A stretch of DNA of 64,000 bases, taken from the IMG/VR virus record IMGVR_UViG_3300037484_000435, positions 288,001-352,000 of that record, one strand, 5' to 3'. Shown one piece after another: positions 395-46,605 of this stretch (positions within the stretch are counted from its first letter, which is position 1; each line of letters begins with the position of its first letter). The stretch comes from a virus (lineage: Duplodnaviria > Caudoviricetes). The translations under genes and the position numbers were made by a program. The notes under the pieces were generated by a model. It searched no databases. It saw only the letters and a program-made list of their open reading frames with translations, and had not been told where the DNA came from.

Positions 395-3300
395 TTAATC
401 TCCAAATTCACTATTAGGTGTGCGAGGTACTGCTGACGGAACTTGCTGCTGACCAGCAGACGATTTAGCCTGATTCGCTGCTTCTAATGCATCTTTGGCT
501 ATCCTCTCCGCGTCGGTAGCTTTCTGTACTGCAGTGTCTACACTAGTCTTCAAACCTGATGTGTCTTTTTCCTGTAGTTTTGCCTGATCTTCCAGTTTTG
601 CCAGGGTCTCTTGAGCCCTATCCACTATACTTTGTAGTTGCTTGGTTAATTCTGGGCTAGCAGCATTTTCAGCAGAAGCAGCAACTCCGGCTGCACCCTT
701 AACTGCATCTAGGGCCTCCTTAACTTTTTCTGTAACTGTGTTTTTAAATTCCTCTTGTGTTAGGAACCCACTTTCTTTAACTTGATTCGCTATAGCTCCA
801 ACTGACCCCTCTGCCAAGACTGCTGTAACTTGAGCACCTGGGGCCAACTCAACTTTGATACCTTGGAGTTTCTCAGCGACCGCACTACCAATGTTACCAC
901 CAGCAGCATTTAAGGCTTCCACTAAGGAATTTATAGCGGTTTCTAAAGTCGAACCCTTCTCCGTACTTTGATTCTCCAACTGCCTAAAATTACCTTCAGA
1001 CGGCGTGGCATACGGTGAAGTAGCAGGGGGTACCGCTGGAACTTCCGTACCTGCTGGTTTAGTTTCAGGTACTGTTGGATTTACTGGTGGAGTAACTTCT
1101 TTTGCTTTCTCCTCTTGTTTTGAATTTTCTAGAGCGGTCTTCACATCTTGTACCGCTTTTAAGATACCTTCCTCAACTGTTTTTGTCTCTAAAGCTTTCT
1201 GGATGGCCCCAAGTTTCTCTTCCAATGGACCTAGGGAGGCTCCCATTTTATCTGTATTAAAAACCCCTTCTTTTGTGGGTGTTGTGGGATTTACCCATGC
1301 TTGACTAGGTTCCATTCGTAGTGGAGTCATTGCAGATGTCACCCCATCGCCTGCTCTGTAGGGGGAGGAATACTTACTGGGGTCAGTCGACACAACAACT
1401 TGAGACTGTGTAGATGCTGTACTAGGTTGAAAACCCCTATAGTCGTAACCTTTATTACTCTGTGCTGTATCTGGGTTTATCCCCGTGCTAAGCATTCTGT
1501 CTCTCTCTTCGTTTAACGAAGCTCTAGTACGCATAGCGGCGGCGTCACCTGCATTGGCTCCTACTTCATCAATACTACCAGCACGATTAACTCTACCCAT
1601 CATTTGAGCGTCAACAATATGTGTTCCCCTACCCCCTAACATTTCAGGCCAGTTAGTAACAAATACTTGAGTAATCCCCTCGGCAGCCTTTGCAGCTGAA
1701 ATACCGCCTGCCTGTCCAGTTTTAGGTCCTCCGTAAACTGGTCCCACACCAACCTTATCCGGAATAGAGTCTGAAGCAGCTTTATAGTAGCGAGGATCCA
1801 CAATACCCTTTTCTTGATCAGCATAATAGTTAGGAACTTCCCCGCCCGCGTCTCTAATCTTTTGTTTTTGTTTCTCATAATAGGACCATGCTTCTGGTTC
1901 TAATTGTACACCTGCGGCTATATGTCTTTGAGTTCTATACGCAAGCATCTGGTCTCTTGTCCACGCACCACCAGTAGCAGGTTTTCCTTGATCGGCTAAA
2001 CCACCAGTACCAGTAGCAGGACCCTCAGCAGGAAATAATCCTCCCTGTGGCATTACCATACCACCAGATAGACCAGCATTCATAAAATCACCTTGGTTAG
2101 GAAACGCTCTAGTAAGATCACCAAAATTCTTGGGCATAGGTAAAATATTTGGCTGTGTGGCGGCATCTACACGAGCCTGTTCTTCCCCAGGAGTTCTTAA
2201 AATAGAAGGTTTTTCGTTTGGTACTTGAATACCAGCAAGTCGCATATTGGCAGCTTGAACACTAGTACCCATAGTTCCTGGCATAATAGCAGGGCCTTTA
2301 AGCCGAACCTTTAGAGCTAATTGTTCTTCGGGAGTATTAGCCCCCTGCTTCATATAAGCTTGTTCTTCCCAAAGTTCCATATGCTCTGGTTTAATCTGGG
2401 ATTCTCTTTTATTAAACAAATTGCCCATATCCGCACCAGTCCAACCCTCAGGAACATTTCCTGTGCGTAACGTATCCTCTTGCTCTGGCGTTAACCCAGT
2501 AAGTCTAGACTCCCAATCTCGACCCGTCCCTGTGCGTGCTCCAGTAAAAGTACTTTTCATATAAGCAGGCATACCGCCCGTAATAATTTCTTTTTCGGAA
2601 ACTTGCTGATACTCTGTTAATTGTTTTCTTGCGGCTTCCTGCTTTTCATCAAACTCTTTTCCGCCCTTTCCAAAAAGACCCTTTATGCCTGTCCATCCTA
2701 TTTGCCCACCAGAAGATTTTGTAGCCATATCATACGCTTCTTGTCCGTGTTTCTCAACAAATCCAGCTTTTATTATTTCATCCATTTGGCTACGAGCCCC
2801 ACTATAAGTATGGCCCCTTTTGCCACCAGTAATAAATTCTTCAGCCTTTCCTATACCCCCCCAAATAGTTGGAGAGATCAATCCTTTGGCTCCCCCTAAG
2901 GCATACTCTGGAAGGAATTTGCTGACCACATTTTCTCCCATTTCTAGAGTTCCTCCTAGGGCCCCCATAATCGTTTCGGCTCCTTTCAACATGGTGTTAG
3001 GCACAACCCCCAAGGGCTCTACATACGGAGCAATTGCTTCTACAGCACCACCAAGTTTTCCTTCTTTTCCTAACCCCAAACCCTCTTTAACTTGCCCCCC
3101 TACTTCTCCCCAATACTTGGAGGCCATCTGTAAAGTAGGATCCAAGGCTAAGCCTTTTACACCTTCGTTTGCAAAATTCATGGCTATCTCACTAGCTAAG
3201 ACACCACCACCAAACCTCAATGGAACTTTAAGAGCACTCAATCCTTTTAGATTATTGAGCCCAGGAAGAGTTTCCGATACCATTGTTTGTCCCAGCCCAA

Positions 3301-6300
3301 AAGTCTTTGGCATAATTGTAGCATTAGCCGCTCCACCAGCAATACCAGAAAAATAATTAGGCCCCTCCATACCTTCAACTTTGGAACCCTGTTCGTAACC
3401 GTGCAGCCCCAAAGAGGCTAGCATCAAGGGCCCCATGACAGACATATTCCCAAACCTGTTCTTAGACAATTTCTCTGCTGTTCCCTTGGCACCTACAAAC
3501 TCGGCAACTTGTGCCAGAGAACCCCCGCCCGCTAACTTTTCCAACCCCTCTAGTTTACCACCAAAAGCCATGCCCGCTTTCGTAAAAATTCTAGCCCCAG
3601 CCATTCGACTGCCCAACCGCTCGTTGCCCAACGTCGCTGTTTGACCAGTTATAAACTCTTCTCTCAGGGGCTTAGCGGCCTTAGTACCTAACACAATGTC
3701 TCTCCCCACATCTGTCTCGGTTAGATGACTGACAGTTTCCAACTTCATCTGCTCAGATTGTTTTTGGGCCAAAGCTTCTCTAGCCACGTCATATTCCTTA
3801 TTACCTTCAAGACCCTGATCCCGATATTTATCGGCTAGTTCCACCTGCTCTTTTTCCCAGTCTTTCTGGTAACCAGTCTTTTCAACACCTTCAGGGGCAA
3901 CAACCGCTTCTTCAGCTGCTCTCCATAATTCTGGTTTTTCAGCAAAAGCTTCTTTGGACTGCTCGTATAGATTCTTAATTAATTCTGGTCTCTCCTCAGC
4001 AGGACGATTATAAACAGCCTGTTCCACCGCCTCATGAAGACCGACGTCCTTCCGATACTCCCGAACACTCTCGCTACCTGATCTACCGCGACGCTTAGCC
4101 GCTGCGTTCTCTTCCATGAATAGAGCATCATAAATTTGCTCTCCCATTTCTCCAATGCGGTATTCCGAGCCCCCGCGATGCTCAATACCAATCTCCTTTC
4201 CGCTCTGAGTTATTCTAGCCCCACCTTCGGTACCACGCTGTTGCATCTCACTCAATCTGCTTGTTAAATAGTCGACAGACTTTCCACGATCAAATTCTTT
4301 TGTCTCTTTAATCTGGCCAGTTCTCTTCATCATGTCTTCCAGTTGTCCTTCAGATAATTGAGAGACACCTCTACGAATAGCCTCTTCCCCTCTAAGTTCT
4401 TTATGGCCTTGTTTGATATTCTGCCACCAACTCCCTTTCTGGGTATCCGGGCGTTGACCAGTGTTATAATTATAGTATTCACCGAAATCCAATCCGCCCC
4501 GTGCTTTTTCTCCCGCGGTACGTAAATCCCGCGTAGCATAATCTTTAGCCCCGCGTGCTAAATCCTTTACATATTCCCACCTAGTATCGCCTTCCTTTCC
4601 TGTGTCATAGGTATCATATGTCCCTCCAAGTGGCCTCTTCACAAAATCTTTAGCCTGTTCCCACTGCTCTCTCCATGTTTTTTGAGGACTTGCGGATTCC
4701 TTTTGTCTACTAAGATTGTCTATTTGTTCCTCACGTTGTTTTATTGATTCTTCCGCTTTTCGTCTTTTTTGTTCATAGTTGACTTGATTAATCTCTGCCT
4801 TTTCATACCTTCTTTGCCCCCTTCTAGCTGTTCTATCCCATATACCAGGTTTTACCTCCTTATAGTCCTTATTTTCGTCCATAGTACGTTTTGCGTCATC
4901 AACTTTGTCTTTGTATTCCTTCTCAAGTTCCCTGTCCTTTTCTAATCTTTTGTTCTCTCTGTCAATCTCTTTTTGCAATTTTTCTTGTGATGGTTCCTGT
5001 CTACGCAGTTGTTTTACATAATCCCAACCTTCACCTGCTGCAGTGCCTGCGAGTCCCCCCAACACGGCTGGAACTAAACCAAGACCAGAAGCAGCACCAA
5101 GACCAAGAACTCCACCGATAACAGCCCTACGATGCTTTGAAGCAAAATCAAGCACTTTATTTCCTTTTTCATTGAAACTCTCTCTCCAGCTCCGCGCTTT
5201 TACCTCAGCAACCTTTTCAGCTTGTGGTTTCGCTTCTGGCATACTTTTATCTGCTGGTTCGCCTGAGAACTCCGAGAAATCTGGTAACTTATTGGTCGCT
5301 TTCTCTGGTTGAGGGGCTGTCCCACTCGCAGCCTCTTGCTGAGATCTTATCCACCAGTCCCTCGAACTCATCTCGGGAGAAAGGCCTTTACCACCAGGCA
5401 GAGACTCAACACCTTCGCCAACTGAACCGCGCATCGCTTCGCTTTGTTTTCGGAGGCCTGCCTCCATCCGGCTCTCTTTTGGGGCCTGCTCGGTTTCTAT
5501 TAGGGCTTGTTCAGCCCCCCCGACATCTCGGGTCTTTACCTCATTAAGGAGAGGTTCCTTTGCTTGCTTTTCCCATAGATCTGCTAAATTATCCAACCCA
5601 TATGCATGAGGGCTTTGGTAAATATCAGTAACCGCATGTTGCATCACTGTAGACCTTTGGTGCTTAGCTTCTATAGGGATGCCTGCCTCTAGGGACTCTC
5701 TGACTGCCTTGTGCACCGAACCCATCTGAACTTTCTGTATAGGTTTAACCCCCAGCTTTCTCTCGCCTTGTTTCTCATAATGAGCCAACTCAGCTTCCGC
5801 TTCAGCTAAGACATTTTCTACATTCACGTGGTGGTAAGCTGTGCCACCTCTCCCCCTAAACTCTGCGTCTAGTGCGTCAATTTTTACCTGATACTTACCT
5901 GCAACTTTTCCAGGAAAAACATTTTCTCCAGCCGCTTGTGCAATCTTTGCTTTATCCCGAGCTTCATTTCTCTCATTAACTAACTGTGCCCGCTTATCTC
6001 GATATTCTTGTTTGGCTCTTTCTACATCACTGAGTGTACCTTCTTGTGGACCCTTACTTTCCACTTTACTAGTCATAGCCCTAGCTTTCTCTTCTGCGAG
6101 TCTCTGGTAATTTGCTAATTCCTCCGCTTGTCCAGCTTTGTCAATAGCTCCACCTTGCGAAACCCTCTCGTTTGCTCTAGCTTGACGCTCTTGTCTAGCT
6201 ATTTCTTCTTGTTGTTGACGTTTTACTGCCTCTTCTGCTTGTTTTCGATTCTGCTCCTCTTGCATCCTAGCAGACTCTTCCGCTTGTTTACGTGCTAGAT

Positions 6301-9300
6301 CTTCCTTTACAGTGTCAGGTGTAGTAGGTTCTTTAGGAGCAACGCCCGCAAACTCGTCATACATTGCTTTAATTGCTATGTCAACTCCCCCTGTTTTATA
6401 GGCCTCCCCAGCACCTTTAGCCTCAAAGTATCTTTGGTTCCACTCAACTCGCTCTGGAGATTTCGCCCGCTCAGAAGCAGCTTGTTCTTTCTGTGTCCGT
6501 CCTTTATCTAATCCTTTATCTCTTCTCCATTTTATAAATACATCTTCATGTTCTTTTCCCCACGCCTTTTTATGTTTACGTTTCCATTCTTTCTCCTCAT
6601 CGGTTTCCACCCCTTGGCTAATATCCTCGTAAGCCTGATTGACTGCTTGAAAACGCTTGACAGCCTCATCCGGAAGAACCCCTTGAGCAACAAGTTTATC
6701 TGGGTGTGTTTGCTTAACTTGTCTCCTATAAGCCTTCTTGATCTCCTCTGGAGATGCATTTCGTTCTATCCCAAGTATCTCGTGCGGTGTTTGGCCCCCT
6801 ACTGCCCCATCCCACGAAGCACTTTCACTAAAACCACGACCACCCACATCTCTTACTTCTCTTTCCATATCCCTTAAACGTAGCATTGTTGGTGTGACAA
6901 CTTGTTCAGGAAAACTTTGCTTCATTTCTCTCTGGGCCCTACGTTCTGCACGTAGCTTTGCTCGGTCCTCTTTTCTAGGAGCAACTAATTCTGGGTATCT
7001 AGCACGGGTCTGTTCGGTAGATTTTCTAATAGCCTCAGCGAAATTAGGCGCATAACTTTCCATTCTATCAGCCATACTTTCCATCATACCCACAGTTTGT
7101 GGTTTTATATCTGTTCCCACACGTGTTATCTTATTTAAACCTTCGTCCCCAACAGTTTCTCTAAATTGCTTGAACAAACGCATACCCGCCGTCATCTTTT
7201 GTTCTGGCGATAAAGTAGGAGAGACAGTAAAACCTCTGAAAACACCGCCCCGCTCGCCCAACTTGTAGGACAAACTTGCCGCTTTCTCATGTTGAGGTGT
7301 AAACAAATCAAGTACATCGTAGCCACCCTCACGGCCCTTTGACGATATTTCCTTGTGATACCAGTCTGGGGCGGGCCTTCTCTGCACAGGTGTTTCGACC
7401 CCACCAAACATACCCTTTAGAGAACCAAGTAAACTAGCACTCTCGCTAAAGTTATCCTTATTAATTACAGGTGCGGACTCCCTCTTACGATTAAGTAACA
7501 TATAAGGATAGGCGTAACGTGCTTGGTTTAATGCTGGTGGTGTAAATCCCTTTTGGTCTTCTTCATCCTTTAAAACCTTTGGCTGTCCTTCTAAAACAGA
7601 CTCGAAAGCCGCTTGAACTGCCCCAGTTCTTTGTTGTGGTTGAGCAGTAGTTAGGGTGGGGACTTGTAAAGTTTCCTCGCCCACCGATTGAATCATACGT
7701 TCCTTTGCAGTTTGAATAAGTCTTCTATCTTTCTCTATAAGCTGCGGACTTTTAAGAATTCGATCAAGAATGGCGGCTCCCCCGCGAACCATATTCTGCA
7801 TACCTGGGTCGGTTATCTTTTCTCCAAATGCGACTTTAGATTGAATATACCTTATTATCATCTCTTCAATCTTATCTTGATATTCTTGTTTCTTATCCTT
7901 ATTTGAATAACTCCCCCCAGGACCAAATTCGGGAAGACTGGTATAAGCCTGCACTTCTTTTAATATACGCGAGTTGGGCGCAAAGTGTAAACGTTTATAA
8001 ATATCTTCTGTTGTTTCTCCCAAAGGTTTCTTATCTACTTGTGCGTTACGTAAAACTTTTGCCACAGGGTGCAGGCCCGCTTCATGCGCAACACTCAACC
8101 ACGTAGGAACGTCATACCCAGATTCACGCATTTGCCCGTTTTCTAAATCAAAACGGCTTCCTTTTCTAGATCCAGTAGAAACCATGGCTGCAGAACCCAC
8201 ACCACCATAAGTGCCTTTCTGTGCTGATATGCCACGAGTTGTTAAATAACCAGTTGCTGTTGGGACTTTCCCAATATCAGGATCGTCTGTGAATGAGAGC
8301 AATCCTCCCTCAGTATTATATACTCGGTCAGCCTTAAACCCTTTAGGGGCAAGATATTCCCAAGCTTCTCTATTCAACGAGGGCTTAATTGTGTTAGCAA
8401 TATTCATGGCCTGCTGCCCAAGATCTGCCAATGGGGGTTCCGTTATTTTAGTAGGTTGTCCACTCGGAGCCGTGGTAGGTGCTGGTAAAACAAAAGGAAT
8501 AATATTAGGAGATCCAGTGGGAATTGTTGCTGTTACTGGGGTCTCTGATATAATATTACGAGCGGGCTTAACTGGAGGACCCACTACTGTAGAAGTAGCA
8601 GCGTAGACTTGTCCTGCTTGATAACTCCCTGTGGATTCGATAGCAGATTGAGCAGTGCCTCTTGATACTTCTGGTGGTGTAGACGGCACCGCAGAAGAAC
8701 CTCCACCACGTTCATCCTTACTGGTTCCCGTTCCCTTATCCCCACACAAACACTTTTGTATAGTAAGTAATGTTTCGGATATTTTATTCAAAAGTTTGGA
8801 TTTATCTAGGCTCTCCTTCATAGCTAAATCCATAACCCTGACCATTTCTCTACCTTGAGCCGACTTAATGCCTGCATCATCGGCCTTGCTCATAAGGTCC
8901 CTCATTTCTCCGCCTTCAGGCCCTAACCCTTTTAAATAAATCTGTTCTTGTTTTAGGTCCATCGCTGGTTGATAATTAACAACACGCCACATCTCTCTGC
9001 CCTGCGACGATCTAACCCCGTGCTCTGAGGCCATCTTCATATTTTCAGCTTCGTTTAAAGCAGACATTTCTGCTACAGGATTTCCTTCTGCGCGTTTTCT
9101 TATCCCAGATAACCACTCGGCTTCTTCTGCCCCAGCCATCGGTTTCAATTGCCCAAACATACTCCCGCCCAGTATGCCAGGCGTTGTTTCAGAACCATAA
9201 ACATTCTTCAAAATCCAAGGGTCTACACCAGCACCGCCACGGGCGGTAGACGCTAAACCTTGCTGCAAAGATTGCTCTTTCCACTTCTCTACGTATTTTT

Positions 9301-12300
9301 GATAAACTGTATCTGATGTTGTATCAGTTACACTAACATTCCTGCCCACATTTATATCTGTCCAATCTTTCCTTTCATTAATGGATTTTAACTGGGCTTC
9401 TTCTTGTTTTTTTCTTACTTCTTCTGTTGTGAAATTATTAGTTGTTGTTGTCGAGGTTGACGAAGTAGCCCCGTAAGTGGTCTGGCCCAATACACCTGCC
9501 TGTAATTGTGCCAACATATCTTTGGCGTAACCTGTAGGATCCATTACTTGTTTAAAAGCGGCCTTTTGGTCTTCAGTTAGGTCTTTTGTACTTCCAGTAA
9601 GAGCTTCTTGAAGATTTCTGATCGCATCTACAATAGGAACCCAAGTGAATCTTGCAGTTTGTGCTGAATCCTCCACTTTTATAGCCTGCTTGAGGATATT
9701 GGACATTTGTTTAAACTCTGAGAGGGACTCAAACCCACGACGTGTAGCAACCCCACCTCTGTTATCAACTATATCCGCAGCCTTCTCCATATCTTCCTTA
9801 AGTTTAGATTTCATAGGTGCAAACGTCTTTACGAGATCAGGAAACTGACCCCCATACATAACTTCAGTTTCTTCTATCGTCTTTTCTGCTTCTTGTGCAA
9901 CCCCTTTTTGTCGTTCAAATTTTTGATCTTCGCGTTTTTGTAAGTAATTAATCTGCTCTTCTTTTGCAGTCCACGTTATACGTTCTTTTTGTGCTCGATA
10001 CTCCCCAGGTTTAATTTCACCAGACCGATTCTTCGCGTCTAAGGCAGCCAACTCCTGTGCTTCCTTGCTTCCTTGACGAAAAGCCACCGGTACTTTTTCC
10101 GGGTATTCCCTGTCGAATTCTTCATAGTCTGAGCTTTGGGTACGGTAATCTGCCCCCATACCCGGCATAATTACATTCTTCCCACCTATAGTTTCCATCC
10201 TAGCCCGCTGAACTGAAGATGGGTGTTTACCCATCTCTGTGTCCATACGAACCGTGTCTAGACCCCAGCGAGTGCGTGCCATAACTTCTAGTTGCACTGC
10301 GAGTTGCTCAAATTTCTGGGCAACTTGTGCTACCTTTCCTAACATATTAATTTTCTCAATAAGGGGTTCGAGTGCTTTACGGGCCTCCTCAGCAGACCCC
10401 TTGAATACAGTAGACGCCTTTCCAAAAATTTCTGCTTGCGCCAGATACTTTTCTTGTTCCTTGCCTGTTGTGATACCGCCCATAAGTCTGGCTTCAACTT
10501 CTTTCTGCTGAAAAGCCCCAGCTTTCTCAGCTAACGTATTCACCGTAGCGGTGCCCATATGTGCCTCAGCTGCTAGATTAGGAGCATACTTTGTGACAAC
10601 CTCCCTCGGGGTTAATTCGTGTTCAGCCTTAGTCTCTTGCCATTGATACTCAGCAACGCCCTTAGCTGCTCCCGCCACAGGGGACTTTAGTTCTCGGGAA
10701 AGCATGTCTCCAGAGATTCTAGCTAGGTCTCCCATCGTCTGCTTTAACAGTTGCATCGATTCTTGTAATGCTTCCATCTTGGCCAAAGTAACAGCAAATT
10801 GCTGGGCTAAACCCTCAAGGGCTTTCATCTGCCCCTTGTATGCCTCGGTAAGTCCTTCATGTTTTTGCTGTAAAAAGGCTAGTTGGCGATCTAATTCTGC
10901 TACTGACTCCTGATCGCCCGAAGCCGCAGCCATAGTCCTCTTTGCTTGTGTTGCTTGAACTTCCCCCGCCGACCTGCCAAGTTGCTCTTTCCATTGTCTT
11001 TCCAATTCTTGGGCCTGCATCCCTGTTTCATACATCTTCGGAGCATGCTTCGCCATGAGTTGGCTAGGGCTCATCTCATAGGAGTACCATTGTGGGCGTT
11101 GGGTCTCCCCCATATACCCAGACTGAGTAAAAAGACTCGCGTTACGACTATCACTAATTTTTTGTCCGAGAGTTCCCACAGCAGTCGTAATATCCACGAT
11201 CATCTTTTTAGTTTCCATAACTATCTTGATTTCCCACAACTTCTGGGATGCTTTCTTGAGAGTTTCATCTAGGGTAGACACTTCTTGGGTCAATGCTTCA
11301 ATCTTAGCTTCAGCAGCTTTCATCCCTTTTTCATATTGATCCGCACGGTTCTTATCCCCACCAGGTTGTTTCTCCTGTGCATATAATGAAGCCATTTTCT
11401 GTAATTCAGATTTTGTAGCATCTATTTCACTAATAACCTGATTACGTCGCATTTGGGCTTCCTGAGCTTGTTTAGCTTCAGGACCACCAAACTTGGCAAA
11501 ATATTCTTGTGGATTGAGATCAAATTGAGTTCTTGGTCCTTCTTGAATCTGTGTGGGCATCGCTATCCCGGCCATAATACTACCAGGAGCCTGCTTTAGT
11601 GCAGATATATTAAATTCATGGGGAAGGGCTACTTCGAATTTAGCACGCATCCCTACCAACATATTATTCAGCTGCTTAACAAAACCTTCGGCTAAAAGTT
11701 TTACAACCTTACTCTCTTCCGCCTTGAGTTCCCTGATTAGCTTATCTAGCTCCTCTTTTGTTTTAGTTGGAAGGTCTTCCTTGGCTAATTTCTCCTCAAG
11801 ATCTTTCAACATTTCTGCAGTTCTCTCCAGATTATTCTTTATCCCCTGTAGATTAATGGAGCGACCCGCTTCTAGGTCACGTTTAGTTTGCTTTAGTTGG
11901 TCTAACTCAGTATTCCACTTACTTTCGTTAGATGATGCCGCCGAATAGTTACTTTCTGCACTATTCAACTCATCAAATCTCTGCTTAGCCTCGTCTACCT
12001 TCTTTTTAAAACTAACTGCCTCAGGAGTACCAAAGTTACCCTTGTATTTTTCACTGTACTCCCCAGATAGCTTAGACCACTCTTCACCTAGATTTCTATC
12101 TTTATATTTCGCCTTAACTTTTTCAAGTTCCTTAGCTGCTTTTTCTCTTTCAGGAACCGCAGATTTAAGAGCCTGCTCTGCCGCAGGGATACTCGTTTCA
12201 ATAGTTGTTTTTAACTTTTCTCGTTGGCTAGTAGTAAGCTCCGCTTCTTTAGGTAACTTGTTTACCCGACTCTGCTCGTTTGCGACAGCTTCTCTCGCTA

Positions 12301-15300
12301 TCGCTGCGGAATCCATTGCTGCTCGGGCCTGCACGTCAGCTTTTTGAGCCTCCTCAACCATGGCCCGCTTCTGATTAATCTTCTCTATATCACGTTTATT
12401 GTCTGGATTTAAAGCAACTAATTCTTCCGCCGTCATCTCCGCAATAGGTTTGGGAAGTAGATTTTGTGTTAAAGGAGCTACCTTTCCATAATTAGATGAC
12501 ATTGGTCCCCACGAATAAGTTGCTTTTTGTAGTTCGGCACCAGCAACCCCTGTAACCTCATTACGATTCCATCCGAGTTCTGCACGTTTTATTTCCAACC
12601 TCGCCCTCTCAACAGCCTGCATCTCTTTGAACAGTCTCATCATTGCTTCCCCAGCTGTGATGATACCGGCGTAATTATCACGTAATTCTTCCAGTTTCTT
12701 GTTAAGGGCATCATACTGCTTAACACCAGCATCAATTTCTGATATTCCTCGTGCAATCTCATAACCTGCCGTTCTTGCTGCCCTTAACGGAACCTCCGCT
12801 TGTGCTTTATCACGCAAGGCGTTTAACGCCTGTTCAATAGAGCTAAGCCTATCTATTTGTGGCCCTAATTCCTTTTCACTTATTTTTCCGGCCTTGCGAT
12901 CTTCTAGTAATTGTTGTCTGCGCTTCGCAACAGCTGTTAGCTGCTCCTCAATCTCTGTACCCGCGGCGGACACCTTTTTAGATTTAGTTTTTCCCTTTAG
13001 ATCTTCCAAGTTATCTAGAAAAGGAATAGTTTCCTCCATATTTTTTAACTTGTCATCCTGTGCACGAGTAATCTTACCACCTAAAGCTAGAAAAGTTTCT
13101 CTCATCCCCACTGCTTCCGCAGGAGTAGCACTAACTATTCGTTTTGCTTGGTTTTGAAAATTTATAAAATCACTATACTTTCCACCTTCATTTTTTGTAA
13201 CTTCTTTTTGGAGCTTAGGATTATTTTCTAAAGTAATAAAACCCAGTTGTTGTTGTAATTTAGTTCGCTCACCTACACTCTTTTGTGATATCTCTTGCAT
13301 TTGTGACTGGTAGGCCTTTTCTTCAGATTCAAAACGGGTCCATGCTTGATAAACAGCTGGTTGTTCTTGCTTAAACCGATCCATGGGAGTAGCTTCTGTT
13401 ACATCCCTCATCCGTTGTTGTATATCTGGTCCACCAAAACCTCTACCAAATCCCATATTTTCTTTTGAAGTTTTAAATGTTTGGGCAAGCTCTTCACTGG
13501 CGGCACGAGCTTTTGCAAAAGCGGCTGTTAAAGCAAGAACTTCGGCATTATCATTCTTCAACGATTGCCTCCTTAATTCCATTTCCTCCAATTCCTGCTT
13601 GATTTTTTCTGGATTATCAGAAATCTTCAATGCTTGAGCCTTCATCTTATCTCTGAGCGCTTCTATTGCTTTTTCCAACTCTTGGGTAGGTGTAGGACCG
13701 ACACCCATTGCTTTTAATGGACTAAATCCTAACAGGGGGTCAAACCCCAGAGTGTCTTTAGCACCTTTTCCCAAACCAGCAGCGATATTTATAACTTTAT
13801 CAATGCCACCTTCTTCTTGTGCCTGTCTTTTTAACATCGCTATTCTTTTATAATCTCGGTCTAATTCTCTGTAACCACTCTTATCCGTAGACTTTAGGTA
13901 CTTACCAAATTCAGTTTTACTAAGTTCGTCAAACGTACCTTTATCCCCGCCAATAAGCTCAGACATGTACCCTGTTTGTGACCTCATTCGGTCCTCCAAC
14001 ATTTCACTGTCCATCTTTTCATTAAAAGATTTCATACCAACCATCATGCCACCAGCACCAAGCAAAGGCACTAGAGCACTTGTTAGTTGGGAAGGAACAC
14101 TTACTGTAGATTGTTTTCGTAGATCTTCTAAGTCTTTATTCGCCCTAGCAAATTCTGACTGCTTTCTAGCCGCAGGGCTAAACGCGGACATATCGACTAC
14201 TGGATTAGCTTTACCAACCAATTCTATACCCATAATATTTTCATATATAAAATCTTTTATTTTGGTTCCCAAAGGCTTAACTAAATCATACGCTAAAGCG
14301 GATGCGGCTGCACCAGCAACAGTTCCCAAAGGACCCGCAAATACAGACCCCACAGCACTGAAAATCCCCATAAGTATACCTTGTAAGCCAAGGGCACCCA
14401 CCAATTCAGGGACAATAGATGTTAGACCACCAACACCATATTTTTCTTTTGCCTCAGTTACCCCAGAGATAGTTTCCGCTACAACCCCAACAGCTGGAAG
14501 GGCGTGTCCGACACCCCTTAATGCCGGTAAACTTTTTGCAACACTTGGAAATGCAGTAAGAATTTTTCCTGTGGCAGTTTTCCCCAAATGACCAAACTCT
14601 TCGGCCACAGGTAAACCCTTATTAAAATCAGCTATTGCTCGTTCTAGTGCGGCGGTCTCAGCTTTAGCCCCTCCCATGATTGTCTTTAACGTGCCACCCT
14701 CACCGAAGAGATTGCTTTTCCAAGTCATACCTTTCCCAGCGGCCCCTCCTATCTCTTGTGCTACCATTACATCTGGTCTTATTACTGACATCACACCTTG
14801 CCCAAAAGCTCTTGGCATTGCACCAACGTTTCCTAGAGCAGGTTTTCCACCACCTACATTCATCAGTATAGAGCCAAGTCCTGCGACACCAGCAATACCT
14901 CCGTAGGCTTGTGCATGTGACAACTTAAATGTCTCTTCCAACTTAGAAGCAGCATACTCAGTCCCCATCATAGTCAGCATCATACCAGTCATTCCAGCAC
15001 CTTTACTCGGAGAAAGTCCTGACGGCCTCGGCATACCAGTTCTCTCCAACTCTTGAAAGGCCAAACTCATACCACGTATATTTGTTCGTATATCTCGATT
15101 ACCTTCCGCCAAGGAAGCTGAAAATCTCTGGATTTCCTTTCCAGCTTGGCTCATAGGGTCTATCATCTCAGCTTTAAGGAAGTCATTTATTCTTGCTTGT
15201 AAAACATCACGTGTTAATGGCTGTTGCACTGTACCAGGAGCCCCTTCAGTTTGGGTCAATGTCGCGTGGAGTCTCTGGGTAATTTCTCCTGCATTAATTG

Positions 15301-18300
15301 GTCGTTCCGTTCTAATCATCTCAGTTAAATTCTGCAGTGGTTGCACAAATCTATCCGACCCATGAGACACATATTCACGAAGTCTTTCTGCATATATAGA
15401 GTAATTCCTTTGGAGTTCAGGAGGAAGTGTTTCGATCGCCCTGCTGAGTTCTGTGTAAGTAGTATTTACATCCTTACCAGCCCCCGTTTTCATCTGATTT
15501 AGCATTTCATTCAAACGTTCAATTGTACTATAAAGACGAGTTTGGCCAGACACAGTTTCAAAATAATTAGCTTTACCCGCCTCAACATCTGTTATTAGTT
15601 TTTCATGGGTACCTAGCGTTTGTGCTCGTGTCTGTAAATCCGTATAAACTTCAGCGACAGGCTTGTTTCTGTAGTAACGCCGCATTTCAGGGTCCATCTT
15701 TACCTGACTTAGACGACTAACATTCTCTGCTCCCTGCTGCGTAAATTCTTTAAGCACCTCGGAAACTCTCCGCATCTCCGCATTTACGCGTTTTAATTCA
15801 GCCTGTAATTCGGTTCGTCGTACCGCCACATCCTCTGAGGTCCTAAACATTTCTTGGGGCTTCAAAGCAGTTTCTACAATAGTGTTCACTCTGTTTCGTT
15901 CTTGAACATGCCTTGTATAAAGTGGATCACCTCTACCCACATTATTCCTATCCATTTCTCTTATATTTGCTTCGAGTTCGTGCAAGCGGTGCCACTCTTG
16001 CTCTATTCCTAATTGTTTTAAAGGACTGACGAGAGAACCTTCCGCTGGGGTTCTTAACCCTTGTGTTAATGCTCCTCCACGAACAGCAAGATGCTCTTTT
16101 GCCACACCAGCCATAATAGTGTACGCACCCATAGGATCTCTAGGTAAAGCTGGTGATTGGATTCCTGAAGCAATCCCCCTGCGGTAGAGATTTTCTATGA
16201 TTTGCCCGCGGGTACGGTGCGTAGCAACACCTGGCCTCACATCGTCACCTAAGTAACTCTGTAAATCTTGTGGGCTCAATACATCACGAGCAGGGAAAAT
16301 GTCTGCGGCCAGTCTTTGTAACGCTCCCGCGTTATTTCGAGCTGATCTTACTCGTCGAGCCGATTCAAGAACTTCTGGGGTTCGCATGTCCACACGAGTA
16401 GAATCCACAACCCGTGTCGCCCTAGATCTCTCATCTAAGCCCCTTATAATATTTTCATACTCTCTATTGGCCTCTTCGGGCAATGGCGTGGTGTTCCCTA
16501 ATCCATGTGCCTCTCTAAGCATATTTTCGATTCCCATACGTCTAACACCAGGGGCTGGTCCACGTCGAGTTTGTCTGTAGAGGCGGTTCATTTCCCCTGT
16601 CATGGCTTCAGAACTTATATCAACACCACGCTCATTCACTATCGCTTCTGCCACTAAACGTCCCGCCCTATCCTGTTGTGTTCCGGGCATCATTTCTGCA
16701 TCAATAGCCCTCTCTCGTAATCTTCTGCGTAACTCTGCTTCAACACGGTTAGATACTGGTCTTAGTTGTGTTCCATTTATTTCCGGCATAGTTCTTGCCA
16801 TAATTCTATTTCGGGGAGCAAAGAATCCCCGATCTATCTGTTCCGTTCTAATTAAGGCATCGTGCAGTTCTTGTAGAGGTACTGTTGCTGCTGGGGTACC
16901 TGCGGGACCCGTTCTCCGTTTCATCGAAGCTTCGGCTTGATCTTGAGAAATTCTCCTATAAAGTCCTTCTTGTACATTTGCGGGTAAGGGCACATCTCCC
17001 TGATTTAAGGTGTAACCCTGTTGTTGCATATTTTGCCGTGCTTCATTAAGAACAAATCCAAGTTCTCCCCTACGGGACAATTGATTTTGTAATACATCTA
17101 TTCCTTGTTTTTCAGTAGCTATACGAGCATTACGCTCACGGCCAGTTTCTGCACGACCTTGTTGATTAGCAGGATTAGAAAGATTAGTTTGTAATGTTTG
17201 TAGTCTTCGGATCTCTTCATGTTGCGGACTCATTCCACCTTGAACTCTGCGGTCTATTTCATACTGTAATTCCGTTGCTAAACTTTGTCCTGATCGATCA
17301 GTCTTAGCTGCACTAGTACGTTTTAGGTATGCCTCCCGCTGTTGAATCTCTCGTTCAATGTCTGCCTCAGGAACTGTTATATCACCAACAGTAACTCTCG
17401 AACCCCCTCTTTGACGAGGAACTCCACCAGAAAGCAATTCTCTTATCTGTGCCAAACGCTTTTCTAATACACCAAACTTTCCAATATGTTTATCCCTAAT
17501 TTCTTCAAGCCTTCTTATCTCTGCCTCAAATTGCCCCGCTTGGCTAGAGAATAAAGACTCAATTCCAGCGCGTGCTCTCTTCAAATCATCTAGACGAGCT
17601 TCGAACTTAGCCCTGCTCTCTCCTAACTTCCTCATTATGTCGTTGTCGGTGGCCGACTCCAATGCCTGATTAGTGCTGTCTAACAACTTTTTGGTGCTCG
17701 CAATATACTTATCATTTCTACGTAAACGGCGTTCCTTAAGTTCAACTGACTCCATTAGGTGCTGTCTCGGTTCAGCAAGTTTTGCATCAGTATCCATAAT
17801 ATTACGAAAAGTGTCTTGATATTGAGTTCGCGTATTTTGTAAAATACCAAAGGACTCAATAATTGGTAATCTGTGTTGAACATCCTGGGGCGTCATACCA
17901 AAACGACTAGTGTTGGGTCCCCTTAAATTATCTATAGCAGACCCTGCATTTTGAACATTTGGCATCCCAACCATACGTGTAAAGAACTCAGAGTGATTTA
18001 GTGCATTAGGTCCCGCTGATATTGTAGGTAAACCAGTCTGTCCACGAGACCTACCTGCATAATACTGAGACATTAAATTGTCCATCCAAAATTGCTGAGC
18101 TCGACTCTGCACAATATCTAAGCCCCCCATACCAGGAAGTGTCCCTCTTTGCCTCATGAACTGTTGTCGCATGAATTGTTCTTCTAGTTCCGCACCAACA
18201 GGGGTGCCTTTACCACCCAATAACCCAGACATAAAATTCCAAACCTGTTTGTATTTAGGAGTAGCCACCGCACCTATCCCTCCAAACACAGCCTGTTCTC

Positions 18301-21300
18301 CAGAAGCTGTGGAAGGTGTTAACGACTGATTACCCATACCCAACTGGGCTAGATGAACTTGTTCGGCGGTCTGCATCATACGTTCCTGAATACCGCGACC
18401 AGTCATCCTCCTCGTGACTGCCCCATATATCCCACCAGCAGCCGCTACTCCAGCAGCAAGAGGTAAAGAGGCACCAGCTAATGTGGCCATTCCTCCAGCC
18501 GCCAACGTAGATAGAACTGGATGACCGGCAGTTAATCCTAGTATGGAACCTTTGATGCCCCCCAATCCGGTTAGAGTACCAATAGCACCTCCCGCCATAA
18601 AACGATTCCGAGCCCTAAATATATTTGAAGTTTGCCTATCCGTGCCAACCCCACTAGCTATCTCTTCCATTAGTCTCTGAGAATAAAATGGGTCAACACC
18701 ATAACGACCTTGTGCGGGCTTTGCCCATTGACCAAAAGCACCTGCTCTTATACCACCATAGGCCCCCAGAGCCGCACCAGCCTCAGGTGCAATGTGCATC
18801 AGTTCCCCAAACCCTGTTGGTCCCAATGCCCCTAGAGTTCCAGCAGCACCAGCAGCCATTAGGCCTGGCCTAAATCCGGTTCCTAAAGCGGCTCGATACC
18901 CAACGGAACCAAGAGCCCCTCCTATTAGTGTTCCAGGTAATCCGGTTCCTAATTCTAACGCGGACAGCCCAGCTCCCAACATAAAACCTCTAGTGCCTCC
19001 TCTCTCGGACAAGGCCCAAGGCATACGTTCTCCCGCCCTTACATATTGTGGAGCACCCGCTCTAGCCCAACGTTCACTTGCACGATCATATAAACCTTCA
19101 AGACGTCTCCCAGCAAAAGCTCGCCCTATAATTCCGGGTTGCCAAGCCCTAGCCCCCGTAATCTGGTCAACTACAGGTGTAGGTTGTAAAATATTTCTAG
19201 CAGCACTTACAAAGGGCGAAGCAACTCGGCTTATTGATTGAGTAGCCGAAACACCTATAGCGGATTCTACCCGTGCTCTTACATTTGTCCGGAGAAAATT
19301 AATGACGTTGTCAAATACACCAATAAACGATTGTTTACCTAGACCTTGTGTCAAACTTAATTCAATAAGTCTTAATGAATCAGCTAATTTAAGTGGCCAT
19401 TGGCTTAAGCGTAATGCAGTAGACACACCCAGATTATTAATACGGTCTGTAACAGTGGTGTCCGCAGCCCATGCTTGTAACCTATTGATACCATCTATCC
19501 AACCACGCATAGTCCTCCCTACTGCCCCCAATGCACCACTCAGCCCAAGTAAACTACGTTCAATAACAACCCCTGCAGTTGAGGACATACCCGGAAGACC
19601 ACCAATAGATGCTCCTGCGCGTCCTGCTAAACTAGACAATCCTTCTGCAGCCCAAGCGGTGGGACGAAGTGCCGTTAATTTTGCAGTTGTCCCAGTTATC
19701 GGAATCATCCTTTCTCTAACAAAACTAGTTATTCCCCCTAAAGCCTCACCTTTTCCCAAAGCCCCTGTAATTGCACGAACAAAATCATACGTCATCTGCA
19801 TATCTTTTTTAAGGTTACTCACATGGGGAAGTAAAGTCATTACACCCGCCAAACCACCTATAGCTGCCATTCCAACTGGCCCCAAAGCAGCTATTGAAAG
19901 AAGTCCCGCACCACCCAACATAGAGCCACCCAGCACATGCCCAGCCACACCAGTGCGAGGTCCCACAAGACCACCTAATGCAGAGCCTCCCCTAGTCCCT
20001 GCTCCAAGAAAACCACTAAACATAAGTGAGCTTATTACAGTAGGCATTAACCCACCTAAGGCGGCTCCTACTGCAAACCTGCGTAGTCCACTTCTCCCTA
20101 ATGTAGGACCTGCTGTCCCTTCCGGTTCTCCATTTACTAATCTCTGGTACCATCTGGAAGACTGTGCTGGAGTAGTAGCAGGAAGCAACTGCTGACCAGC
20201 CGAGGTTTCAAACTGCCGAGGGTCTCTCATAGCCCGTTTCCAAATATCACCTTGAAAATTAGGCTGAGTTGACCAATCGGCAAATCTAGGTTGCCGTTCT
20301 CCGTAGCGTTTTGCATCTGTTATGAGGTTCTCTAGAATACGAGGGTCGCCCAAATTTGTTTGTGTTGGAACTGGATGTGTTGCTAGGAAAGATTCGGGTA
20401 ATCCTTTTACCAATCCTCCCACACCTTGGAAAGCTCCAGGATAAGCCCGTGTGATCAATTTAAAAGCCATATAAGCAGCAGCAGCAGTAACCGCCGCACC
20501 CATAAAACTCATGCTTTGCGACTGCTCAATGGAAGCTCTAAGCAAACGAGAACGTGGGGCCAACTGGTCATCACTGCCTGAACCTATTACACCACCAGCT
20601 GGAGCTGCGGCCCGCATGACTGCTGTGTTGTCCGCGATTTGTCTTAACCAATCTGAGTGGTTCAACATAATACGTCTATCCCAATCCGCAGATTGTGATA
20701 AAGATTTTAAGAGAGAATTACCAGCCTCAGTAGCCTTTAGGATATTCCCACCAAAGAATTTCTCCGCAACTTGACTGCCTAGATACGCCCCAACACCAGC
20801 TTGTAGCGGTCGAAGATAGCGACTAGGCTCTGGCATTCCTCCTTCCATAATTGCTCTAGCCCGTGTAGCTTCTCTTTGTAACTTGTCTCGTTCAGCCTTT
20901 TCCTTTTTCCACTGTACCAGATCCCTTTTAGCCAAAAACATTGGATCAAATCTATCCTTCATGGAAATCTCTTCTATACCAATTAACTTAGAAAGCCTAT
21001 CCTCCCCAAACACGTTACCCAAGGCGTTGTTTATCCTTCGTCCTATATGAAGGTCAGATATTCTTTTGCTTATTCGACTTGGAAGATTATTAGTTAATGA
21101 GTTAATACCCTCCATCCAAAGACCACCCAAATCAAAATCTTTCCAAACTCTCTCGGCCATGGGAAACTCGGGTTCTGGTCGGCTAACGGCAGGCGGCCGA
21201 GGTATATTCCCCCATCGTCGTTGTTGTTCCTCCATAGGGGTTCCTAGTCTCCTATTAGCAGCGATTGTCGCGGTTTCTCTCTCAAAGTTTGGTACGGGCA

Positions 21301-24300
21301 TACCAACCGTTTGCTTGGCCCAGTCACCCCAACTGATAGGTTGTTCACCCGCTAACCCCATAAACTGTCTTAAATGAGTTCCCCAAGATGCTGTTGACTT
21401 TAACTTATCTCTCTCTGAAGTGGGTCCGCCGACGAGGGTTCTTCCAATGTCTGGAAGGAATGAAGTTAAATCATAAAGCGATCCCACTGTACCTCTCGCT
21501 GCCCATGCTGGAAAACTGTCTGGTTCCTTCGGTTGGCCCATCATTTGTAAGAAATTTTCTCTATCCTGTTCTCCCAATAAATCTTCACGTAATCCCGACT
21601 CAGGCATAAACCCTGCCGGTGTGAATCGCTTAGTCTTTTTAGCTCTCTCCGCTACCGTCCTTAATCCACGCTCTCGCTTATCAAAATCATAATAATTTTC
21701 TACCATTGCTTCTCTTAGTGGATCTTGATAGGGCTTTACATAACCGGCGTCTTCTTCAGCCACTCTCCAAAGAGGGGATGGTTTCTGCCAATCAAATCCC
21801 CTATCCTCCCTTACTCCTATCGCCCTAAGAAATCTATCTCCCAAATGTGAACCTTTATCCTTGTAGGTACTTTCATAAGAAGAAAAATCGGGGGATTTAG
21901 TTACGTAATCCATGGCCCCAACGATATAGTCACTTATCCCCTTACCTGTTTTAGAAATTGCTCCAGAAACTTTTGTTTCAACGGAATCAGAAAGACCTTC
22001 GGCATCTTTCCCCAAATCTCTAAACCAACCACCCAGATCGAGTCCAATAGTCATTTTACCCAAACCGATAAGATCAGTCCACGTCGACCAAAGTTTGTCT
22101 ATAGCTTTGGACACCACATCCGCAGCGGGCCCGACAGCTTCTAAATCCATACTAACCGGTTTCCAATTCTGTGATAAGTTAGACCATGCTTCAGATTCAA
22201 TATCTACTGCAGGGGTTTTTACTCCGATGTCCCCAGCCTTAGTCTTGGGGCCTAGTTTACTAGTATAATACTGTTGCGCTTTTTCAAGGAACTGCTGATC
22301 CCTTTCTTGTGGCGAAGTAAATAAATCTTCAAAAGCACCCATCCAACCAGACAAACCCTTTTTCTGTGTAAATTGTTTTCCTACAATGGGTTCCCATTTT
22401 TTGTCAAAATTGGTAATCTTTGTTTGTGCATATTCGACAAAGCCTGGAAGTGCATTAGATATGGCCTCCGACGGCACTTTTTGCTTTAACAAGTTAGAGT
22501 TCGGTTGCCCCTCGACAAGCCTTTGCCCAGAAGTAGAAGCCAGTTGTCTATACTGTTCTGCAAGCTTTAACCTCTGAAATCTTTCTGGTTCCGATAAGTT
22601 CTTCTCGTTAGCAGAAGCTAAAGTCTTCTTATAATCCGCTGTATATTTATCGTAATCTGATAGTAGTTGTTTGTCCGATTTATTCGCTGTGGCCGCAGAC
22701 CTATTTAAATCTTGTAATTCAGAAATAACTTTCTCAATTAAATGTAGTTGTGAAGTTTGTAAACCAACAAGTGCCGCATCCTCCTTCTTCCCTTCTGGAG
22801 CTGTACCTATAGATCTTAATATTCTATCCACATTTTCTTTACCTAAACTCTCCCCGAGTCTCCCACCCAATTGCTCCTTTAAGTCTTCTGCCATAAGACG
22901 GGTGCGGGTATCGGTACCAGCCAGAAGTTTCTCTGTTTGTATATAACGTTGGCCACGCATTTCAGTTTCTGACTGACGCTGAGTTACACGTGCGTACTCC
23001 GGATTAATGATACCTAGCTTTTGTTCTTCGGAAAGTTCGGCCCACGCTTTTGGTTTGGTAGGCATCTTTACAGGTAACCTATCCTCACTTTCAAAACCAA
23101 CTTTAACACGGCGTGCTGCTACCTCGGCCCGATCTTGGGCTATTGTTACTTGCTCATCAATTTTTGCTTTTGCAATAGTGTTGAATGTATTCTCCCATTC
23201 CTCTCGGACCTGTATTAAAAACTCTAACTTACGTTTTTTTACTAAAAGGTCCTGCATCTCTTTTATCTTACTAGCACTCTTATCAGCACTAGCCGTGTCA
23301 GAAGTATACAGTTTCCATTGCACATCCATATCCCTGATTGCTTCAGCCACTTCCCACATCGCATCTTGTGCTTTCCGGCTACCCTCCACTTCAAACAAGA
23401 ATTTTTCCCCCAGTTTTAAAGCCTCATGTCCCTGAAACTTAGGCATAAACATAGCGGCCCCACCACCAGCGTACTGTTTAGTTTTTTCGTACTCTTTGCC
23501 TATGTCAAACATACCAGCCTGTTTACGGGACCAAGTTTCGATTTTACCTTGTAAGTTTTCCCAACCAATTCTCCGTTCCTCTAAACCTCCGGGGGCACGA
23601 CCTTGGGCATAGGGAAGCTCGCCGGGCTCGGGCATAATCAACGGCATAGCTTTTTCCGGAGAAAGCGCACCTGTCTTATAGGCCTCTTGGGTTAATTGTG
23701 TCCACCCCATTGTGTCCCCTGGCTTAATACCCTTTGCTCTGGCTGATTCTACCTCTTGATAAGCTATCTTAGTCATAGTGGTCCAATCTTGTGGTTCTTT
23801 CGTGTTAAGGATTTGTTCATTGGCACCCTCACCAACAGCACCAACAGCCACATAATACTTACCCTCACCAGCACTAGTTGCAACCAATGCCTTAGGTTCC
23901 TGCATTGCCCCACGTGTAACCCCTTCAGTAATAACTTCTTTTGCTAAACCTTGTTGTTGTAACATCAAGTTCCAACGTTCTTGTCTAGCCAAAAAACGTT
24001 TAGCAACTGCAGATTCTTCTTCTCCCCCTGTTTTTGGGGTAGCAGCCTCTATCCGCTTAGCTTCGTCTTTAACCCACCCCATTACACCCTTAACTGTATT
24101 AGATAGAGTTGTAAAGGAACCTGTTATTACAGTTTTTATATCTGAAGTTCCTATTGAAGATAAGAATGAAAATGCGCCTTGCACCTTATTGGCGATGTCT
24201 GGGCTAACTGCTCCGATAGAGGAAACTATAATATTTGAGATGCCACGAAAAGCACTACTCAGACCTTCAGCTATGATGTTCCCCATTCCCTTGGTTGCAG

Positions 24301-45647: not shown

Positions 45648-46542
45648 GCAAATCACCATACTTTATAATTCTATAACTACTCAATAGATCCCATTTTCTT
45701 GATAACCCAAACTGAACACTATTTCGACAGTCAATTAAAAATTTCTCGGCACGATTACCCCCTAGAGTATAATAACTATAAGTCCCAAAGTCTTTTACCT
45801 GACTAATCCGAGGAGCACCATAAGTGGAATCACAAAAATTCTTAATCCAAGCCAACAGATATCTGGTTCCACAAAAGCCTGTTACTAACGTGGGTATATT
45901 GTGTTTTTTATTCCAACCAAGGGAGACCCACCCATCACCATCAAGAAGTCCTTTAAGATAGGGCAGTATCAAATCATTATCTAATAACTTAGGGGGACGA
46001 AGTGTATAGGTCTTTTGCGGAGTAATAGAAAAATTGTTATTTAAATCTATATACCACCCCTTAATCCCAGAAATACGTATTTCAGCAAAATAGGAATTTT
46101 TACTAAAACCCCTACTTTTTCGAGAATGTATTTCCCCAGAAAAATGAGTCTCTGCTTTAAAAGATCCCAAAACAGAAGCATCCTTCTCAGCCAAACCTAT
46201 AGTTAATTGGTATCTATTTGCAGATAAGTTACCATCGGCAGCAATAAAGCCTGCCCAGTAAGAGTTGTGTGTATTCGGTTCGGAAAAGTAATCCAAATCA
46301 ACGGTTGTTCTGACTCGTCCTAAAGACAAGGTGTGGGAGGTATCACCTTTTATACCCAACCTCAGAAGTCTATTACTAACCGCACCTTTGCTCTTACCAA
46401 GTTGTTGTGAAATTTCTTTACGATTAACCTTTTCATAAAGAGATAATAGTAGCCTATCTTCTTCGGGAGTCCAATGTTTATACCCCTTAGTATTCTGAGG
46501 ATTGCGTGATTGGAGTTCATCTAAGGACCATTCTACTGCCAT
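45637..46542 (-). mobile_element. Free-standing LAGLIDADG homing endonuclease with one Myb/HTH-like N-terminal repeat
   Basis: SYWAGFIAADG and YLKGLLDGDG motifs; HWTPEEDRLLL repeat; C-terminal LSRKW. Confidence 0.88.
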
Positions 46543-46555
46543 CTATTTCTCCAAT

Positions 46556-46591
46556 AAAAAAGGACCTACTAACAGACGTTAGTAAGTCCTT
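46556..46591 (-). terminator. Rho-independent terminator
   Basis: Minus-strand RNA AGGACUUACUAAC-GUCU-GUUAGUAGGUCCU-UUUUU: a 13-bp stem with one U-G pair, a 4-nt loop and a U tract, between 46606 and 46542. Confidence 0.8.
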
Positions 46592-46605
46592 AAATTTAAA
46601 TATCG

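Follow-up and report, generated by a model that had tools for sequence, protein, structure and literature searches.

An intact J-domain in the C-terminal tail of a predicted giant tape-measure protein of an uncultured phage

Results

A giant reading frame predicted to encode a tape-measure protein

The window analysed here comprises 64,000 nucleotides (bases 288,001-352,000) of the 545,322-bp IMG/VR record IMGVR_UViG_3300037484_000435, which represents an uncultured phage of the Caudoviricetes and has a GC content of 41.9%, a CheckV completeness of 100% and ends that overlap by 145 bp. It contains a giant open reading frame (ORF), in which 44,133 nt are translated without a stop, and a DnaJ-type J-domain is embedded late in the encoded chain of 14,711 residues (Table 1). 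The core of this chain was recognized by the PhageMin_Tail profile (E 3.3e-26, 92.9 bits against a cut-off of 33.2) and by 12 PHROG tape-measure families, which match about residues 5,580-6,270 with a best E of 4.7e-64. The same core is 30-53% identical to 22 giant proteins and to 61 IMG/VR loci, the latter retrieved with an alignment of tape-measure cores. Furthermore, the genes flanking the giant ORF are syntenic with those of the giant ORFs in two kin phages; they are conserved in kin, and PHROGs give them no name. By its PhageMin_Tail core and this synteny, the giant ORF is thus assigned as a tape-measure protein, in agreement with the initial annotation, which had placed the J-domain in such a protein. 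Pfam also detected RNA ligase, LigD_N phosphoesterase and RNase H domains in the N-terminal part of the chain. On the C-terminal side of the tape-measure core, the J-domain is the sole domain recognized by Pfam and PHROGs across 8,600 residues.

An intact J-domain with a conserved HPD motif

The embedded domain, which reads TPHEILGIERNASPEEIKKAYRRQVKQTHPDKLVAQGVLPDEAVKRFQAVNQAYEDIS in translation, was matched by the Pfam DnaJ profile PF00226 over positions 2-54 of 63 (E 3.9e-13, 49.7 bits versus a cut-off of 27.8), and a six-frame search of the whole genome returned it at 57 bits (E 1.1e-15). By phmmer, 47 distinct J-domain sequences of the PDB matched as well, including E. coli DnaJ and 5NRO_B, a J-domain bound to DnaK. 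The HPD tripeptide, situated in the loop that joins helices II and III, forms the sole invariant columns in a 50-sequence J-domain alignment and aligns with H33-P34-D35 of E. coli DnaJ (MG1655 record). Residues R22, K23, Y25, K26, R27 and F47 of E. coli DnaJ correspond to K, K, Y, R, R and F in the embedded domain, and the Hsp70-contacting basic face of helix II is kept (K, K, R, R). The loop that follows the HPD motif is four residues longer than in E. coli DnaJ.

The fold was modelled with AlphaFold for residues 12,480-12,760, with the 50-row J-domain alignment as input. The J core reached a pLDDT of 94-97 and showed the helical hairpin of a J-domain (helices II and III, onto which helix I packs), and long helices were predicted on both sides of it. 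When the model was compared with the PDB by Foldseek, the top matches were all J-domains, with an rmsd of 1.0-1.7 Å over 55-58 residues, and 5NRO_B superposed on the J-domain with an rmsd of 1.7 Å over 57 residues. In addition, an independently assembled Logan contig covers window positions 6447-8042 with zero differences. This contig comes from the only public sequencing run that contains the stretch, a DNA run that is probably the source sample (no RNA run is listed, which has no bearing on expression), and since it spans both junctions of the domain without differences, the junctions are no local assembly artefact. These results confirmed that the embedded stretch is a genuine, intact J-domain, far beyond chance, and the description of a textbook J-domain with HPD at about residue 12,609 was borne out. 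A complex prediction for residues 92-196 of the J-domain alignment together with E. coli DnaK 1-605 and ATP (score 0.17, mark 0.32, controls not run) counts neither way.

Subtype and origin of the domain

Of the NCBIfam models, DjlA (NF006948) matched best at 51.2 bits, although the match is limited to the J part (positions 203-262 of 267) and lies below the whole-protein cut-off of 162 bits; DnaJ_bact (TIGR02349) gave 47.4 bits, again limited to the J part and far from the 377-bit cut-off for class A/B DnaJ, in which a G/F region, a Zn-finger and C-terminal client-binding domains follow the J-domain. Over 74 residues, the domain and E. coli DjlA share 38% identity; the two have the loop HPDKLVA(Q/K)G..P in common, and several of the best database matches are genuine DjlA proteins. 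Sec63 J-domains match too, through the loop HPDKLVAxG..P. On these comparisons we classify the embedded domain as DjlA-like in subtype. Membership of the DjlA family was rejected, as every DjlA feature but the J part is missing, including the N-terminal transmembrane/TerB-like region.

Duplication of the phage's own DnaJ was likewise rejected as the origin of the domain, given an identity of 30-36% and a different subtype; the identity to any database J-domain is at most about 55%. A recent foreign insertion was rejected too, because the base composition is that of the flanks, the GC content shows no anomaly and flanking repeats of any significance are lacking, from which it follows that the capture is not very recent. 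The closest J-domain matches are scattered over many phyla in a search biased by the NASPEEIK pattern, and we infer no donor or host from them.

Elsewhere in the genome, a stand-alone gene encodes a DnaJ-like protein of 272 aa with a J-domain, a G/F region and a Zn-finger, which matched DnaJ_bact with 178.6 bits and has a shortened C-terminal part. The gene just upstream of it encodes 238 aa, of which the N-terminal half is extremely Gln/Pro-rich. A third J-like gene encodes 113 aa with an HPD motif; it scored 20.2 bits, below the Pfam cut-off, and had no NCBIfam match. A profile search of the phage genome detected no Hsp70 and no GrpE, so that any Hsp70 partner of the phage's J-domains must be that of the host.

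Position and surroundings within the chain

The J-domain lies 86% along the chain and 2,073 residues before the C-terminus; its earlier placement near the C-terminus therefore holds as regards its late position, but not as regards its distance from the end. A Gly-rich linker, the sole stretch of the model with a pLDDT <50, precedes the domain, and a highly charged helical stretch follows it. Residues 12,601-13,500 contain 39-41% charged residues and have the lowest hydrophobicity of the whole protein, so that the J-domain lies in its most charged part. Next to the J-domain, no substrate-binding or targeting domain was recognizable with Pfam, PHROGs or the ESM Atlas, and an ESM Atlas feature search with residues 12,100-13,300 gave no usable match.

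With a Kyte-Doolittle 19-residue mean >1.6 as the criterion, the giant protein has six Gly/Ala-rich hydrophobic segments, while its orthologues in the two closest kin records, G001 and G002, have eight and three. These segments resemble the glycine-zipper membrane-inserting stretches of other tape measures. Two of them flank the J-domain at a distance, one on the N-terminal side, in a block that is alignable with G001, and one on the C-terminal side.

Table 1. Features of the giant ORF and neighbouring or related genes. Positions refer to the window unless another reference is given.
Feature	Position	Residues of the giant protein	Strand	Basis
Giant ORF, tape measure with enzyme domains and J-domain (predicted)	395..44530	14,711 aa	minus	stop at 395-397
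RNA ligase (RNA_ligase)		3,060-3,216		Pfam
LigD_N phosphoesterase		3,409-3,504		Pfam
RNase H (RNase_H)		3,704-3,829		Pfam
Gly/Ala-rich hydrophobic segment	32894-32953	3,860-3,879	minus	Kyte-Doolittle
PhageMin_Tail core	26837..27430	5,701-5,898	minus	PF10145
Gly/Ala-rich hydrophobic segment	26147-26203	6,110-6,128	minus	Kyte-Doolittle
Gly/Ala-rich hydrophobic segment	20018-20077	8,152-8,171	minus	Kyte-Doolittle
Gly-rich hydrophobic segment	19820..19936	8,199-8,237	minus	Kyte-Doolittle
Gly-rich hydrophobic segment before the J-domain, candidate membrane-inserting	14321..14416	10,039-10,070	minus	Kyte-Doolittle
Lineage-specific C-terminal tail with J-domain	398..8641	11,964-14,711	minus	BLASTP, phmmer
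Gly-rich linker before the J-domain, GGRGFSESASWDGAVGGQ	6791..6847	12,562-12,580	minus	translation
J-domain, helices I-III	6617..6790	12,581-12,638	minus	Pfam, phmmer, AlphaFold, Foldseek
HPD tripeptide	6698..6706	12,609-12,611	minus	translation
Highly charged helical stretch after the J-domain	5921..6616	12,639-12,870	minus	composition, predicted long helices
Gly/Ala-rich hydrophobic segment ~500 aa past the J-domain, candidate membrane-inserting	5051..5125	13,136-13,160	minus	Kyte-Doolittle
Two homing-endonuclease-like genes just upstream of the giant gene	45637-47748		minus	PHROG 4645, LAGLIDADG/HNH-type matches
Four homing-endonuclease-like genes interleaved with downstream genes	L004 9819-14797			PHROG 4645, LAGLIDADG/HNH-type matches
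333-aa ORF, weak galactose-3-O-sulfotransferase match	48888-49889		minus	PHROG, E 1.3e-8
Stand-alone 272-aa DnaJ-like gene	G000:C1:212133-212951 (L001 874-1692)		minus	DnaJ_bact
238-aa gene with Gln/Pro-rich N-terminal half	L001 1716-2432			
113-aa J-like gene	G000:C1:116578-116919 (L003 1408-1749)		plus	HPD

The J-domain and its tail have no counterpart in the relatives checked

G001 (211 kb) and G002 (256 kb) encode positional orthologues of 13,617 and 12,316 aa (G001:C1:74900-115750 and G002:C1:102047-138994), flanked on both sides by orthologues of the genes found here, the next downstream gene being 31-39% identical. According to BLASTP, these orthologues are collinear with the giant ORF until about residue 11,963, past which the three C-terminal tails (2,748, 1,348 and about 3,400 aa) are mutually unrelated. 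The kin tails yielded no J-domain with hmmsearch --max and no Pfam domain at all, and the phage's own genome has no paralogue of the C-terminal tail. Tape measures >12,000 aa are thus a trait of the subclade of this phage, G001 and G002, most other relatives having about 7,000-7,800 aa.

We extended the comparison to more distant sequences. When 54 kin records were searched with the DnaJ profile, 15 yielded a J-domain, always in a separate, stand-alone frame of 250-289 aa; a giant frame with a J-domain was seen in none of the 54, although many of them are fragmentary and may be without the whole tape-measure gene. Since the same profile search found the embedded domain at 57 bits, a comparable kin domain would have shown. 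None of the 22 giant tape-measure proteins mentioned above (5,560-7,808 aa) has a J-domain; they share with the giant ORF only the putative polymerase region and the tape-measure core. A similar J-domain occurs in 37 of 50,697 GenBank phage records; where annotation exists, it belongs to a DnaJ- or CbpA-like gene, and four unannotated huge-phage records that were inspected have their J-domains in frames of 330-370 aa. Comparison of the J region with proteins of 5,445-17,325 aa found no homologue.

An exhaustive phmmer search with residues 12,150-13,150 against 1.84 billion representative proteins gave 1,419 matches; in the 150 best listed, the top-scoring stretch is the J-domain, and the flanks matched nothing. 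The top match was considered as a flank homologue and rejected, being a protein with six tandem J-domains. Single-protein queries of viral contigs with the J region, the tape-measure core, the C-terminal 700 aa or the downstream 832-aa gene returned no relatives, nor did a J-region query of metagenome contigs; kin were reached only by the alignment query of tape-measure cores. In the literature, we found no paper describing a J-domain inside a tape measure.

From these comparisons, the J-domain fusion is best described as a lineage-specific add-on, so far a singleton, located in a hypervariable, fast-evolving tail, and not as a core function of the tape measure. The initial annotation had named a lack of HPD conservation in homologues as a refuting condition; the outcome goes further than this, as the whole domain and about 2,750 surrounding residues are without counterpart in the relatives checked, and the survey it suggested of tape measures in related phages turned up no second case in the 54 kin records, the 22 giant proteins or the GenBank phages.

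Further genes around the tape measure

Four further very large ORFs (5,058, 2,542, 3,404 and 2,162 aa) lie downstream of the tape measure on the same strand, at ~222-277 kb of the genome. Homing-endonuclease-like genes occur on both sides of the giant gene, and an ORF three genes upstream of the tape measure has a weak PHROG match to a galactose-3-O-sulfotransferase (Table 1). The tail sheath PF04984 was absent from the genome search, a weak hint of a non-contractile tail that we do not use as evidence.

Discussion

The intact domain and the tape-measure nature of the predicted protein that carries it make recruitment of host DnaK, as first proposed for this locus, a reasonable expectation. 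The absence of the domain from the relatives checked leaves this proposal unrefuted; it makes the domain a lineage-specific accessory, and the proposal does not extend to a general feature of these tape measures. A J-domain works only where ATP and an Hsp70 are present, and this one would accordingly act in one of two places, the cell that produces the virion or, once ejected, the cytoplasmic side of the new host. Since a stand-alone DnaJ is already available in the clade for general folding, a virion-borne copy would be most useful before phage gene expression. Furthermore, 86% of the chain is made before translation reaches the domain, yet the domain would lie in the leading seventh on ejection, which favours an action after ejection.

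We tentatively favour a reading in which the J-domain is a lineage-specific module that would load host DnaK onto the ejected tape measure at the cytoplasmic side, in which binding to DnaK, the timing and the topology are inferred. A DjlA-like J-domain would have been inserted into the hypervariable tail of a tape measure that, on infection, exits the phage tail with its C-terminal end first. The glycine-rich hydrophobic segments would insert into the envelope, and the stretch with the J-domain would arrive at the cytoplasmic side ahead of phage gene expression. Host DnaK would be stimulated there by the HPD loop and the basic helix II to hydrolyse ATP, and it would then clamp neighbouring unfolded parts of the same chain. 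Such clamping would keep the chain inside the cell, in a manner like that of membrane-tethered J-domains at protein-import channels, and DnaK may also aid the refolding of the N-terminal enzyme domains (RNA ligase, 3'-phosphoesterase and RNase H). The J-domains of DjlA, Sec63 and Pam18 recruit Hsp70 to a membrane face, those of Sec63 and Pam18 at import channels, and the DjlA/Sec63-like subtype, together with the place between hydrophobic segments, weakly fits a membrane-side Hsp70 recruiter. The T5 structure paper describes the tape measures of T5 and 80alpha as trimers that fill the tail tube and have the C-termini at the tip. This paper and the P23-45 paper (PMC10770324) describe expulsion of the tape measure on receptor binding, entry of hydrophobic segments into the envelope and possible refolding, and the P23-45 tape measure delivers an active polymerase into the host cell (PMC10770324).

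Several points weigh against action on the ejected chain. The helix IV consensus of the domain is missing, with a long charged helix in place of the KRxxYD-like motif. Helix IV is not known to be needed for ATPase stimulation. The nearest hydrophobic segments are ~500 and ~2,500 residues away, which makes the closeness of the J-domain to a membrane uncertain. The flanks are without homologues, so that purifying selection cannot be shown, and the orthologues of 12,316 and 13,617 aa that lack a J-domain indicate that the domain is dispensable for chains so large; these two points also speak against any essential role of the domain. Finally, entry of any part of a tape measure into the cytoplasm is unsettled even for T5 (T5 structure paper).

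A stronger form of this proposal, which we consider quite unlikely, is that the J-domain, tethered on the channel side, would turn host DnaK into an import motor that ratchets the rest of the 1.6-MDa chain inward. Its cargo would be the putative polymerase and the repair enzymes, and it would work like Sec63-BiP or Pam18-mtHsp70.

The main alternative is that the J-domain helps during assembly, recruiting DnaK in cis in the producing cell so that the new 1.6-MDa chain stays soluble up to its incorporation into the tail, with no role after ejection. In its favour, ATP and Hsp70 are certain to be present in that cell, and the chain combines an enormous length with many helical, charged and Gly-rich hydrophobic segments; moreover, jumbo phages carry stand-alone DnaJ genes that are usually interpreted as aids to folding and assembly (PMC7824862). 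However, such a helper would be translated only after 12,580 residues, in a phage and a clade that already have a stand-alone Zn-finger DnaJ-like protein, and the orthologues of 12-13.6 thousand aa manage without it. We regard this alternative as possible, but rather unlikely.

Less probable than either of these, in our view, is that the J-domain is cargo for host takeover that acts in trans, perturbing the DnaK network of the host by stabilizing sigma-32 or by blunting DnaJ/DnaK-dependent defences, with no need for any action on the tape measure itself. A bacterial cell holds thousands of DnaK molecules, against which a tape-measure trimer, as in T5 and 80alpha, would deliver about three J-domains. 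A copy number of about three per virion argues against the decoy or titration role that had also been considered for the domain and leaves only local action on a tethered chain. Moreover, no substrate-binding or targeting domain is recognizable beside the J-domain, and the variable tails of kin are without recognizable cargo. What speaks for such an effector is the precedent of RB43 Rki, a J-protein of the early phase that targets DnaK and stabilizes sigma-32 (PMC3486835), the other enzyme cargo on the same chain, and the hypervariability among kin of the J-bearing tail, as is often the case with effector modules. Tape-measure-like effectors of contractile injection systems (CIS) with swappable C-terminal functional domains (PMC13277306) point the same way, as does a DnaJ-dependent defence sensor cited in PMC12619734.

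Least probable of all is an inert module, that is, a captured helical bundle that adds only length or structure and whose HPD survives because the capture is too young for decay: although the domain is a singleton without conservation evidence, is all-helical amid helical sequence and has already lost the helix IV consensus, all functionally important positions checked are kept, the flank-like base composition and the lack of flanking repeats speak against a very recent capture, and the domain is canonical despite its low identity to the phage's own DnaJ and to any database J-domain.

Phage J-proteins and enzyme-carrying tape measures are already known, and the new architecture is the J-domain inside a tape measure. 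In Rki of enterobacteriophage RB43 (Perrody et al. 2012, PMC3486835), a phage-encoded J-domain with a functional HPD likewise targets host DnaK at an early stage of infection, as is predicted here; Rki differs in being small, stand-alone, early-expressed and non-virion, and its action, exerted in trans, concerns the turnover of sigma-32. The 5,002-aa tape measure gp96 of Thermus phage P23-45 (Chaban et al. 2024, PMC10770324) also carries a non-structural domain, its N-terminal part being an active virion RNA polymerase, but gp96 has N-terminal cargo and no J-domain, whereas the present protein is three times longer and has the J-domain in its C-terminal tail. Of the membrane-tethered J-domains, E. 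coli DjlA represents the closest subtype and Sec63 matches too; unlike these, the J-domain here would ride on the translocating chain itself, and a ratchet role is only proposed for it. Jumbo and huge phages have stand-alone DnaJ-like genes (Iyer et al. 2021, PMC7824862; moraphages, PMC12619734); these are comparable as J-domain co-chaperones of large phages without, and sometimes with, an Hsp70, but they are separate genes of 250-370 aa, one of which this phage has besides.

Outside the phages, HopI1 of Pseudomonas syringae (PMC8150971) is an injected protein whose J-domain hijacks the Hsp70 of the recipient, although it is a bacterial type III effector that enters plant cells through a secretion system and its sequence context is unrelated. 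The Sle1-type effectors of actinobacterial contractile injection systems (PMC13277306) have a tape-measure-like scaffold with exchangeable C-terminal functional domains; none of them is a phage tape measure, and a J-domain has not been reported for them. Polyvalent proteins (Iyer et al. 2017, PMC5512222) combine many conflict-related domains in a chain delivered with DNA and are typified by LPD/anti-restriction domains. The giant ORF has several enzyme domains in one chain, but Pfam shows no LPD/anti-restriction domain in it, and the paper on polyvalent proteins mentions neither DnaJ nor tape measures (PMC5512222).

An intact J-domain in a tape measure would serve as a built-in marker, indicating either that part of the protein reaches the cytoplasm or that the chain needs Hsp70 while it is made. 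It thus bears on two unsettled questions, namely how enzymes attached to tape measures refold in the cell and whether any part of a tape measure enters the cytoplasm. Should the import-motor proposal hold, this would be the first Hsp70-driven protein import into a bacterial cell from outside, and the C-terminal region of a tape measure would be shown to reach the cytoplasm. For this group of phages, the C-terminal third of tape measures of 12-15 thousand residues is a fast-changing region that is able to capture new modules.

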